A DNA stretch of 63,179 nucleotides, the filler included, from Neolecta irregularis DAH-3 (taxonomy: Eukaryota): the NCBI GenBank assembly GCA_001929475.1. It is 4 parts of 4 records of this genome, joined end to end, with 100 filler letters (N's around TTAATTAATTAA, not from the genome) between each part and the next. Parts side by side here need not be neighbours in the genome. Positions count along the whole stretch, not along the records: positions 22,586 to 48,022 come from LXFE01000280.1; 3 more parts are not named here. One strand, 5' to 3'. Both the position numbers and the translations under genes were made by a program. Below the pieces are notes generated by a model. The model saw only the letters and a program-made list of their open reading frames with translations, did no database searches and was not told the DNA's origin. Of the stretch, positions 2,583-61,321 are shown in pieces; position 1 is the stretch's first letter; every line of letters starts with the position of its first letter.

Positions 2583-5500
2583 ATGGTCGGCATATTGATA
2601 AAAAGAAAAAGAACAGAAGAGGATTCTGTTGCAAAATGCAGCGAAACCGGAAGAGGAGCAGTAGCTACGGCATCACAGGATCCGATATCGGCGCCGCAAT
2701 CTACTGGATCTTTCACTGCTCCAAACACATACGACGAGGCATATTCACACAACATGCTCAAGCTGGAGACGGACGAAATTTTGGACGAAGTCAAGATAAA
2801 TTTCGAGCGTCTTGGTGAGGTTGATGAGTTACTTCGAAAAGTGAAGAGTTTGATCGAAGAGATTCCTCCTTCTTCTGAGATGAAGGTACGTTTGTCTTTT
2901 AGAACTACGACTCAAACATTCAGATTTTGGACTATGCCCAGCGCTTGCACGAGAAAGGCAAGATTAAGGTGCCTTTTTGCGAACCAAAGCCCTCGAAAGA
3001 AGCGTTAAACATGTTTGCCTATGAGAAACCCATACGAGTTTCAGTTATTGGGAGCTTCCTCCTTCAAACCATGGCAAAACACCCGGCTGGCCTAGTGATT
3101 GATCTGGCTGTATGTATGCCAAAGGTACGAAAGCCAGTTCACTGTTGCGATTTCTAATCCAGACTGCGTTTCAAGAGAAGGATTACCAAGATTACCGATA
3201 CTTCCACAAAAGAGCATGTTATGTTTCTGTTATTGCTTCAGAGATACAGAAGAAAGCGAAAAGTCTAGATATCACTGCTTCATTTGATGCATGGCATGGA
3301 GACCTTCAAAAACCAGTACTCCTTATCCGCCCCAAGACCAGTAACTTATCTATTATTTTGTTCTAAACTTATTCTCAAGAAACTAAGAAGGTGAATTTCT
3401 CAATCCGAATAATTCCTGTACTTTCGGAAGATGCTTTTATAATCAAGAAGCTTAATTCAACTCGATGTAATATCCGACATTTACAGCTAGAGAACCCCTC
3501 GAAAGAATCCACGCCAAGATATAACGCTTCGATCTTGGCAGATATGCAAACACAAAAGAGCCTCGAATTTTTGTATGCACAACAAAAACTTTGTGTAGGA
3601 TTCAAAAATGCCTGTGTTCTAGGACGAATTTGGTTAGAACAACGAAAGTTCTCTGGGAATTACTCAGAAGGCGGCTTCGGAATTTTCGAGTGGTCTATGT
3701 TGTTGTCGTTTTTACTTCAAGGCGGTGGCCCTCGTGGCGGTAAGTTGCTTGCTGGAGGATACACCTATGTGCAATTGTTTAAAGGGGTACTTCAATACAT
3801 TGCTACGCATGATTTGATTGAACAACCAATCAAGTTCGATACAGGAAAGTTGGCAGTGGCAGTGGCAGTTACTGGTTGTCCTGTTCTTGAGGATGCTAGC
3901 TCCGGTTTGAATTACCTCTATAAAATGACTAGATCTTCATATCTACAGGTATACCAATTTCTTTTTCGACTGACAATCAAGTTAAAATTTGAGGCCGAAA
4001 AAGCGCACCTTGCCTTGCACAATAGTTCGAATAACTCTTTCGAAGCTCTTTTTTTGAGAGAAATTCCACATGATCATTTGCGCTATGATATGTTTTTCAG
4101 GTTTGACGACCTTTTCAATTATCGTCGTCGCTTATGATGATAGATTATCAATTTCTCCTGATATAGCAGTCTCTACGACCGATATTATCGAGCCTACATT
4201 ATCTAGAATCGCGAAGATTGAGGATGTCATCCGAAAGACCTTATTAGATAGAGTTTCTCTAATTTCTATTCGTTCTGCAACAATTCCAACATGGAGACTG
4301 AACGAAGTTACTCCTTCATACAACAACCGGGCCCTAGATGTCGGGTTTATTCTGAACCCTGAACGTTGTGACAGAATCGTCGAAAGAGGTCCTTCCGCGG
4401 ACAACAGGGAAGCTGCAGAGGAGTTTAGAACATTTTGGGGAGATAAAGCAGATCTTCGAAGGTTTAAGGATGGAAGCATCAAAGAAAGTGTCGTTGCTCA
4501 ATCGGAACCATCGAAGTTTTACCCTGTCATCATCGAAGAATTCCTTGACTGGACGCTCCAGAGACATTTTGGAGAGCAAGTTGCAAAATGTTCTAGGTCT
4601 ATGGGGATGGTCGTAGCATCATCTCTCGACTTTGCAACAGAATATCTTCCAGCCGTGAAATCATTAGCTTCTCAAGTGGAATCGTTTTCGCCGATTGTTG
4701 CTGCATATGATGACATCGGTAAAGCAATCAAAGGACTTGAAGATTTACCTTTACGAGTATCGAGTATTATGGGATCTAGTCCAGCTCTGCGGTACTCTTC
4801 CACTCAAATTCCCCTTCCACATCCCCAAACAAATGCTGCAAACCTTCCAGAGTCCTGTCAATATCTTCAGCCAATCGATTTTATCTTGCAACTGGAAAGC
4901 TCAGGCAAATGGCCGGATGATCTCGAAGCTATCAAGAGAGTTAAAGTGGCCTTTCTTCTTGACATCTCTAGGCGATTACAAAGTCAGAAATCAATCCCAT
5001 CTCAAATTCACATTCAAACGTCCCGACATGGCCGAGAATTTCCAGTGCTTGAAATATATCACAGCACTGGATATGTCTTCCGTGCTCAATTACATCATGA
5101 TCGAGACGCTACGCTGTACCAGAATAAGATTAACCAGCTCACGGCATTGAAAGATCCCTCTTTTAGTCGTTACAAAGATCTCTTGTCCGACTATACCCAA
5201 ACGTTCGTGGCTGCCCCACGACATACTTTGCAGATTCAGGCGTTATGTCAGCAACATCCTTACTTATCACCGACTATTCGTCTTGTCAAACGATGGATGC
5301 ATAGTCATATGCTGAGCCCTCACATTGACGATGAGAGTATCGAACTCCTTGTCGCAAGCGTATTCACAAGCCCTTTCCCCTTTCATATTCCATCTTCGGC
5401 GGTTACGGGATTCTTAAGAGCCCTCCAACTTCTCTCTTCTTGGGATTGGAGACTTGATCCAACTATTGTGACTACTATTGATCCCATTGATGCGAATGAA

Positions 5501-22402: not shown

Positions 22403-22485
22403 NNNNNNNNNNGTACGTTATTGCACACCTTGCCGCCTCGTGATTGCTTGAGATCGCGGTGCGATTCAACCATTCGTCGTGCGAG

Positions 22486-22584
22486 NNNNNNNNNNNNNNN
22501 NNNNNNNNNNNNNNNNNNNNNNNNNNNNNTTAATTAATTAANNNNNNNNNNNNNNNNNNNNNNNNNNNNNNNNNNNNNNNNNNN
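22486..22584. other. Artificial contig spacer (N-run, TTAATTAATTAA, N-run)
   Basis: The same six-frame-stop 12-mer embedded in Ns occurs three times in the window. Confidence 0.95.
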
Positions 22585-23454
22585 NTGTGGCGTTGACCAA
22601 AAAGGTAATATTTTATTTCACTGTGGCGGCGAACGCGGTTAGTGGCGTTTACGAAGAATATAGTTCGCAAAATGTTAATTTCCACCAACAAGTATGATAT
22701 TCCCTGTTTTAGAAAATGGAGATATTCTTTTTGTGTGGCTGGCGAACGCAGCCTTAGAGATCTATAGTACTTTGGTATCGCTTGTCACAGGAAAAAACCC
22801 GTGGCTTTTCCGGGCACTAACACTGACAGAGAAGTTTACGCTGGGAGACTAGGTGCTGCTATCGACCAGAAATTTGACGCCAAAGGATGGCAATATAAGA
22901 AACTTTTTGCCCAGGCAGATAGGGCCATTCCCAATTGTGCATGTTGGGAGCAGTAAAAATTATGGAGTGAGATTGCCGAGTAACATGAAATGAATGAAAT
23001 CATCTTTGTGCAAAAATAATTGTTCACGAACAAGCTTCGTTTTCGTTATTGTCTTCATAATCTGAGTACTATAAATTCAATAGGTTCTATTCTTCAGAGA
23101 TCATCCTCAAACATCATTTTTATTTGTCCAGCAATCAGGGTGCTACATGCCTTCATCCGTTACGCCGTCGCCATCACAGAAGGATCTCTTTTCCTGCAAA
23201 TATAAATTATTTGGTTATTACAGGCTTGAAGTATCGGGTTAAGTTATAACAGTTAAGAAACCCGCAAATTGTCTAAAAGAAATATCTGTTAGCAGGATTT
23301 CAAGTTGCATAGGTATTCCTGAGAGGTGACGCCTAAACCATTCAGCCATGCTGCCCTTGCAATTCTTCTTTGCAATAAGTAAGCTAGAGCTATACTAAAG
23401 TAATATAGGTCTAAATCTTTGGATACATCAAAAATGAACGGAATAAAAGTCTGT

Positions 23455-23536
23455 CGACAACAGCAGGATTTGAACCTGCGCGGGAAAATCCCATGAGATT
23501 TCTAGTCTCACGCCTTAACCGCTCGGCCATGTTGCC
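23455..23536 (-). tRNA. tRNA-Ser(AGA)
   Basis: GGCAACATGGCCGAGCGGTTAAGGCGTGAGACT-AGA-AATCTCA, long variable arm, GGTTCAAATCC, acceptor stem closes. Confidence 0.95.
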
Positions 23537-26349: not shown

Positions 26350-27455
<1,106 letters not shown>

Positions 27456-27641
27456 AATAATGACGATAGCCCATTTTCTCTTATTTTGAGATTAGATTCT
27501 TAAGCTCTTGTGATCTCCTTATCAGAAGAATAAATTATTGGGAAAAGGTCAATATTCATTGTTATTTGCATTCAATATGGGGGTTACAATATCCGTATGA
27601 ATGAATTGCATTTATTCAACAACCAATTTGCTTCCTGTCTA

Positions 27642-28469
27642 TCACCCAATAACGACTTTTGATTCCTCAATAAATTCATATTCAGGAAGTAACTAAAAAT
27701 CAGCTCAAGGAGAACTTAACAAGGTAAACATATTTTCCAAGTTCAATGGGGCTGGTCCTTTTCTGATTCTTCCAGCTACGGGATCAGTTCCAAATATCCA
27801 AAATATTTATCTTACAGATGTCGTAGTGTGATCCATGACAAGGACAGAACCACCCACCAAATTCTCCACTGTCACCAATTGGAACACAACCAAGATGCTG
27901 ATAAATCAATTCATACTTCCAAATGAAATAATTACCGTGCAAACGCCCACCATGACCAACCACTCAGGCCTTTTGACCCGTTCAGCATCTGTCTGCGGAT
28001 CCCGCAAAGACTTGATGTCAACTTGATTAGCTTCCTCAATTTCTTCCTGAGTTCGATGTCTGAAAAATACTGGCTTCCCTCTCCAACTGCCAATTAGATA
28101 TTTTCATAAAACTACTTACTTAACGGTAAGATTCTGTCCCTCGGGAATTGTAGACAAGTCGACTTCAACTTTTGCCATTGCCAAAACATCGGCAGAAGCA
28201 GCCAAACTGGAAACGAAATCGGAAACTAGCGCTTTTGCGCCTGCAGCCGTAACAAAGCCCATCGTTCCCACCATAATATAGCTGAAGGTTCTTGATGTGT
28301 CTATGTCGCTTTGTTTCTTATAGTGGGAAAAATCTGGGATTTGAGTGGTTCTTGTGCTGTTGGTTCGAAGGGCAGTCATTGCCGGTAGCACCGGAACATT
28401 GATCGGGGAAAAACGTTTAGATATTAGAGGTAATGAGGATTTGAGGGTTGAAGGGACGCGAGAGGCCAT
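27642..28469 (-). CDS. RIP1: Cytochrome bc1 Rieske iron-sulfur protein
   Basis: [61 protein letters not shown] (last junction needs an AT-AC intron). Confidence 0.96.
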
Positions 28470-28578
28470 TATTGAGTGATTAAACAGCGGAGTGGAATTA
28501 CTCTGAGGTGGTGAGTATTCTGGGCTTTGAGATATCTTCCGGGATTCTCCGACATAAGTATTTCACTTTAGGTTACCC

Positions 28579-42354: not shown

Positions 42355-42433
42355 TGCCCACAGCCGGAATCGAACCAGCGATCTTCGCTTGTCGTAGTAC
42401 GAGAGCGACGCTATACCACTAAGCCATGCGGGC
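42355..42433 (-). tRNA. tRNA-Thr(CGT) with a 7-nt intron
   Basis: GCCCGCATGGCTTAGTGGTATAGCGTCGCTCT-CGT-A[CTACGAC]AAGCGA..GGTTCGATTCC..GTGGGCA. Confidence 0.92.
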
Positions 42434-48021: not shown

Positions 48022-48122
48022 TNNNNNNNNNNNNNNNNNNNNNNNNNNNNNNNNNNNNNNNNNNNNTTAATTAATTAANNNNNNNNNNNNNNNNNNNNNN
48101 NNNNNNNNNNNNNNNNNNNNNN
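48022..48122. other. Artificial contig spacer
   Basis: N-run, TTAATTAATTAA, N-run. Confidence 0.95.
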
Positions 48123-61221: not shown

Positions 61222-61321
61222 NNNNNNNNNNNNNNNNNNNNNNNNNNNNNNNNNNNNNNNNNNNNTTAATTAATTAANNNNNNNNNNNNNNNNNNNNNNN
61301 NNNNNNNNNNNNNNNNNNNNN
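61222..61321. other. Artificial contig spacer
   Basis: N-run, TTAATTAATTAA, N-run. Confidence 0.95.

Follow-up and report, generated by a model that had tools for sequence, protein, structure and literature searches.

Introns with A as their first and C as their last base were reportedly engineered in yeast by Parker and Siliciano in 1993. PMC5029451 states that an engineered intron with AT-AC ends is spliced in yeast, and describes a nested AT-AC intron in S. cerevisiae RPL30, which lies inside an annotated intron and gives a minor isoform of ~1-2% of the transcripts. AT-AC introns are rare in fungal annotations (PMC7072748), and the closest precedent for the intron described here is that of S. 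pombe lea1 (SPBC1861.08c), an RT-PCR-confirmed AT-AC intron which is ascribed to the major spliceosome (the one that depends on U1 and U2) because S. pombe lacks the minor one (bioRxiv 10.1101/226894). In animals, U2-type ('type II') AT-AC introns are known from human SCN4A and SCN5A, and 24 in five species are recorded in SpliceRack according to PMC1557818. The U12 class, in turn, is defined by its 5' splice site and branch box (PMC3584512), and a survey of >3000 genomes is reported to contain no convincing minor introns in Ascomycota (PMC10639083). Neolecta is absent from those supplements of PMC10639083 and PMC7072748 that could be searched as text, although other supplements could still list the species, and no literature on non-canonical splice sites in Neolecta was found among the titles and abstract openings retrieved.

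The locus which we compare with these systems lies in a stretch of DNA of 63,179 nt from Neolecta irregularis DAH-3 (assembly GCA_001929475.1, four parts joined end to end), the whole of which is called the window here. The fourth intron of its Rieske (RIP1) gene begins with ATATGT and ends with TTTTTAGTTAC, with AT at 27733-27732 and AC at 27690-27689 on the minus strand, and going by its sequence it is very likely a genuine spliceosomal AT-AC intron that is removed by the major (U2-dependent) spliceosome. It most likely belongs to the known, rare type II (U2-type) AT-AC introns, where we infer splicing at the junction from the sequence. Compared by description, it resembles the lea1 intron in being a coding-region intron of a Taphrinomycotina ascomycete, with A first and C last, that was missed by earlier annotation; the host genes differ (lea1 versus Rieske), and whereas RT-PCR, Sanger sequencing, RNA-seq and spliceosome footprints are given for the lea1 intron in that preprint, the evidence for the Neolecta intron is protein colinearity only. 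With the yeast cases, which come from a fungus without a minor spliceosome, it shares the same compensating terminal pair, but those are artificial or a minor isoform, whereas in Neolecta the AT..AC cut is the only route to the full-length Rieske subunit of complex III. Like the animal type II introns it has AT-AC termini, while its 5' splice site is otherwise of U2 type, and by inspection its donor fits the U2 donor matrix with G->A at +1 by which PMC1557818 recognises this type; the metazoan type II consensus is given as ATAAGT in PMC5029451 and PMC1557818, versus ATATGT in Neolecta, a fungal flavour of the donor. Unlike the animal introns, the Neolecta intron is only 45 nt long and contains an AG that lies 4 nt upstream of its AC. 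The terminal dinucleotides and the first four bases (ATAT) are also common to U12-type AT-AC introns, but neither of the features which define that class, its 5' splice site and its branch box, is matched here, and the lineage is reported to be without the machinery.

The RIP1 gene is located on the minus strand (28469-27642), looks single-copy and has five exons, with its ATG at 28469-28467. Exon 1 (28120-28469) encodes the presequence and membrane anchor (PF02921 region) and is identical to the public protein OLL25933.1 from MASRV on; it is followed by intron 1 (28087-28119, 33 nt, GTAAGT...CTAAT...CAG, with the CTAAT motif 7 nt from the end), the junction of which aligns without a gap with P0001, a 223-aa JGI/IMG protein of a relative, encoded on a contig of 2504 nt, that was found by a search with RIP1 exon 1. 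Exon 2 (27936-28086) was placed by the enumeration of cuts and the alignment to P0001, and is separated by intron 2 (27898-27935, 38 nt, GTAATT...TTGAT...CAG, motif at 8 nt) from exon 3 (27816-27897), which carries the cluster-binding boxes CTHLGC and CPCHGSHY. Intron 3 (27776-27815, 40 nt, GTAAGA...CTGAT...TAG, motif at 8 nt) precedes exon 4 (27734-27775), which ends with the first base of an Ile codon, and after the phase 1 AT..AC intron 4 (27689-27733, 45 nt) exon 5 (27642-27688) starts with the last two bases of that codon and runs to the TGA stop codon at 27644-27642. Joined in this way, the coding sequence of 672 nt encodes a Rieske iron-sulfur protein of 223 aa with the CTHLGC and CPCHGSHY boxes, the Rieske subunit of the cytochrome bc1 complex; the P0001 protein contains PF02921 and PF00355, and its best PDB match is a mitochondrial Rieske subunit (E = 4e-92).

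Within intron 4, the minus strand at 27733-27689 reads exactly as in the initial annotation, i.e. ...GGACCAGCCCCATTGAACTTGGAAA before the cut, ATATGT...CTGATTTTTAGTTAC as the intron and TTCCTGAATATGAATTT... after it. The 5' splice site ATATGT (27728-27733) follows exonic AAA, and a putative branch motif CTGAT is present at 27699-27703, whose branch A (27700) is at a distance of 11 nt from the terminal AC and of 7 nt from an AG that would be bypassed. This AG is part of a TAG (27693-27695) which, when combined with the AT donor, gives an intron of 41 nt and a truncated tail (...NLEITS, then a stop), while the terminal AC (27689-27690) is taken as the 3' splice site from the sequence and the enumeration of cuts. 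Both the AG at 27694-27693, 4 nt upstream of the AC, and an internal box with a weak resemblance to a U12 branch site, TCCTTGAG (27711-27704), had been pointed out in the initial annotation and are found at these positions. RNA folding of the intron with its flanks gave no structure beyond that of shuffled sequences (z = -0.22), and hence no sign that the upstream AG is hidden in a hairpin.

To establish whether the AT..AC cut is forced, donor/acceptor pairs around the intron 4 site were enumerated, and the products were compared with the conserved tail. It had been claimed from the sequence that reading through the intron meets a TGA, that GT donors spoil the frame and that removal of 45 nt restores the conserved tail, and all three claims held: read-through adds NMFTLLSSP before a TGA, all four GT..AG candidates (27729-27704, 27729-27693, 27720-27693 and 27715-27693) shift the frame or stop early, and the AT..AC cut was the sole one enumerated which restores the tail. 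The join at this cut is GAA A/TT CCT, giving ...NLE-I-PEYEF.... Among three GC..AG candidates, one (27752-27693) kept the tail, but was rejected as it changes the conserved APLNLEI into LL, and an AT..AG cut of 39 nt (27731-27693) was rejected as well, with two extra residues (ENLLP). Reading the 45-nt cut in other registers from the sequence gives AA..TA with Leu at the junction when shifted by -1, and Asn when shifted by +1 or +2, so that it is the AT..AC register which combines a common junction residue with a known splice pair.

The comparison with homologues bears on the same choice. The spliced product aligns with the P0001 protein without gaps over 223 aa, with 205 identical residues (92%) and Ile at the junction where P0001 has Val, and in a tblastn search of the window with P0001 the gap at the intron 4 site measures exactly 15 codons. 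As P0001 is an uninterrupted open reading frame that is colinear over the four junctions, its contig must be without all four introns, and is most simply a transcript of a close relative. A metagenome scan provided 80 further related loci with at most 76% identity, which do not include the P0001 contig, and 79 of these keep the GPAPxN..[I/V/L]P spacing without interruption; at the junction the Pro is preceded by V in 43 loci, by I in 34 and by L in two, thus by I or V in 77/79. Among the 46 matched Rieske sequences from the PDB, the best matched stretch extends to the last residue of the P0001 tail in 45, which means that the fold includes the 15 residues that read-through would remove. It is against this background that a main product from another cut has to be judged, be it the 41-nt AT..AG cut (...NLEITS, then a stop), the 39-nt cut at 27731-27693 (...ENLLPEYEF...) or no splicing at all. 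The AG used by the first two does have the usual distance of 7 nt to the branch A, and OLL25933.1 is the read-through form; however, the 41-nt cut and read-through lose a tail that is conserved in 79 of the 80 loci, and to whose last residue the alignment extends in all but one of the matched solved structures, the 39-nt cut keeps the tail but alters a spacing that is conserved in the related loci and needs a donor (ATGTTT) unlike the local ones, and neither change is seen in the P0001 protein. We consider it highly improbable that any of these gives the main product.

The public record, annotated as 'Cytochrome b-c1 complex subunit Rieske, mitochondrial, partial [Neolecta irregularis]', is in the 90%-identity cluster of P0001. 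It equals our spliced product for 208 residues from MASRV, and then continues with NMFTLLSSP, which is intron 4 read as coding sequence; it also has its first residue in open frame 31 positions upstream of the probable ATG (P0140; window 27642-28562, minus strand). With an upstream start and an end inside intron 4, both ends of the OLL25933.1 protein are wrong.

The comparison of this intron position in RIP1 orthologues, as proposed in the initial annotation, placed an intron there in none of the 79 loci with uninterrupted spacing. In the remaining locus, L012, which is a fungal contig, a GT-AG intron (3497-3540) falls within the Ala codon of GPAP, five codons upstream, and L007, L008, L011, L014, L018 and L019 have match spans that exceed the coding length, hence they contain introns elsewhere but none at the intron 4 position. 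The position of the Neolecta intron is therefore not widely shared among the related loci. We also observed that the Rieske gene models break off after GPAPL in Pneumocystis canis (P0002) and after GP in P. wakefieldiae (P0009); together with L012, several intron positions seem to cluster within 10 codons of the Neolecta AT-AC intron.

The signals of intron 4 were compared within a set of 13 introns, itself included, that were curated in three neighbouring genes with a homologue as the check on every junction (P0001 for RIP1, P0145 for PP2A, and P0261 and P0264 for RAD54). A de novo intron survey based on continuity of open reading frames was dropped for lack of discrimination, as GT..AG gave 14 matches and AT..AC 12, and arbitrary pairs came out about as often. 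The curated introns are 31-45 nt long and 11/13 are GT-AG, with GTA[A/T]NN-like donors, namely GTAAGT, GTAATT, GTAAGA, GTGTCT, GTATGT (twice), GTATAT (twice), GTATTA, GTAAGG and GTAGAG, while the distance between the 3'-most [C/T]T[A/G]A[C/T] motif and the end of the intron is 6-12 nt. RIP1 intron 4 agrees with this pattern: its 45 nt are also the length of PP2A intron 3, and its CTGAT is the 3'-most branch motif in three of the 12 other curated introns (RIP1 intron 3, PP2A intron 3 and RAD54 intron 4). The distance of 11 nt between its putative branch A (27700) and the AC belongs to the longer ones found locally, and is the same as for the 3'-most motif of RAD54 intron 1. As had been suggested, ATATGT is GTATGT with G1>A, and inspection finds GTATGT in two of the 11 local GT-AG introns; one of these, RAD54 intron 1, has the context AAA/GTATGT and thus equals the context of RIP1 intron 4 except for +1, the other being PP2A intron 3 with CTT/GTATGT. 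When read from their sequences, the 12 other curated introns contain no skipped AG at least 6 nt beyond the 3'-most branch motif, and the bypass would therefore be specific to RIP1 intron 4.

The U12 branch box has the consensus TCCTTAAC. Against this consensus TCCTTGAG agrees in 6/8 positions, but the A in it lies 16 nt before the end of the intron, and the U12 5' splice site [A/G]TATCCTT is not matched by ATATGTTT, which deviates from the U12 donor at +5 and +6, in line with the earlier remark that the 5' end is not of U12 type. Of the two readings that had been offered from the sequence, that of a U2-type AT-AC intron whose splicing skips an AG is favoured by the donor and by CTGAT and its distance, whereas that of a converted or retained minor intron is disfavoured, as the U12 sites are missed. 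A U12-type AT-AC intron spliced by the minor spliceosome, or a relic of one converted to U2-type, could account for the AT-AC termini and for the resemblance of TCCTTGAG to the branch box, and it could also appeal to the fit of ATATGTTT to 6/8 positions of ATATCCTT, the consensus as quoted in PMC5029451, and to the branch A of CTGAT, which at 11 nt lies within the U12 optimum of 11-13 nt given in PMC3584512. However, the mismatches at +5, at +6 and at the last positions of the branch box concern features which that same paper treats as defining the class, the A of the look-alike box stands at 16 nt from the end, and none of the 79 related loci has an intron at this position, with the nearby L012 intron, five codons upstream, being GT-AG. 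PMC10639083 reports neither convincing minor introns nor their snRNAs in Ascomycota, which agrees with the initial statement that most ascomycetes lack the minor spliceosome; a search of the 63-kb window with Rfam returned two tRNAs only and no snRNA, with the window being a small part of the genome. Taken as a present-day or converted minor intron, RIP1 intron 4 thus is extremely unlikely, and as a matter of history a minor-spliceosome origin is conceivable, but there is nothing in support of it. The two tRNAs, both on the minus strand (23455-23536, 82 nt; 42355-42433, 79 nt), are longer than the 71-position model and may contain introns or long variable arms.

Removal of RIP1 intron 4 by the major spliceosome could proceed as follows. 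From +2 to +6 the ATATGT donor is the same as the local GTATGT, and so U1 and later U6 could still pair with it, with UGU at +4 to +6, while U2 would pair with the CTGAT branch motif. The first and last bases of an intron normally form a G-G pair, for which A-C is a known replacement (review PMC11585973). In the second step, where these two bases would form a non-Watson-Crick pair, an A at +1 would fit a C and not a G, and in RIP1 intron 4 the A1/C-last pair would take the place of G1/G-last. Since an A at +1 needs C as its partner, the AG at 7 nt after the branch A would be rejected and the AC at 11 nt used.

An artefact would provide another origin for the AT-AC termini, if base errors had made a GT-AG intron look like AT-AC or if the locus were a decaying pseudogene. 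There are N runs in the assembly and the neighbouring gene also has a non-GT intron, both of which could be held in favour of this explanation, but it needs two substitutions, independent of each other, that fall precisely on the first and last bases of the intron, and an error would only by luck have produced, as the sole fitting cut, the one non-canonical pair that is known to compensate. The five exons are intact, their product is 92% identical to and colinear with P0001, and no frame errors occur in the exons of the three genes that were checked, all of which makes an artefact or a pseudogene very unlikely. With regard to the assembly itself, the window has seven runs of N (22403-22585, 48023-48122, 61222-61321), of which six are 44 nt long and paired, and which represent masked or unresolved sequence.

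The convergent neighbour of RIP1 is a gene for a PP2A catalytic subunit on the plus strand (26350-27455); the stop codons of the two genes are separated by 186 nt (27455-27642), and their 3' untranslated regions probably overlap. Its intron 1 (26509-26544, plus strand, 36 nt, GGACAT...CTAAT...CCAAG) has no possible GT start, and since AAGG is repeated at both ends, four cuts are equivalent: AG..CA, GG..AA, GG..AG and GA..GG. Its removal is needed for colinearity with the homologues, which have LC[D/E][K/R]-ARE[I/V]L around the junction (such as LCEK-AREIL, with the hyphen marking the intron). At the place of this intron the PP2A protein of a relative (P0143) carries an in-frame insert of 11 codons, with Val first and Gln last, which would be consistent with a GT...CAG intron in that relative. 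In the PP2A model of P. wakefieldiae (P0181) nine residues are missing which correspond to IDVKRLCEK and lie immediately upstream of where Neolecta has the intron, and it looks as if the gene finder took an upstream GT there and the true donor is unusual in that species too.

For the public record, the result corrects a protein, as the OLL25933.1 model of this essential respiratory subunit has nine spurious residues in place of its 15 last conserved ones, and it indicates that gene finders limited to GT/GC-AG introns truncate proteins in the intron-dense genome of Neolecta. For splicing, RIP1 intron 4 offers a natural A1/C-last compensating pair in an obligatory intron, and what stands out in this case is the combination of an essential respiratory gene with an AG 4 nt upstream of the AC; because this AG is at consensus distance and must be rejected, the intron would make a compact substrate for the study of second-step 3' splice site proofreading. 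RIP1 intron 4 and PP2A intron 1 together are the two non-GT-AG introns among the 13 curated, and they add to the case for an RNA-seq-based survey of splice sites in Neolecta. It is possible, if rather doubtful, that the AT-AC intron is one symptom of a generally relaxed choice of terminal dinucleotides by the major spliceosome of Neolecta on introns of 30-45 nt. If true, this would make Neolecta a natural system in which introns are recognised by branch site and length rather than by their terminal bases.
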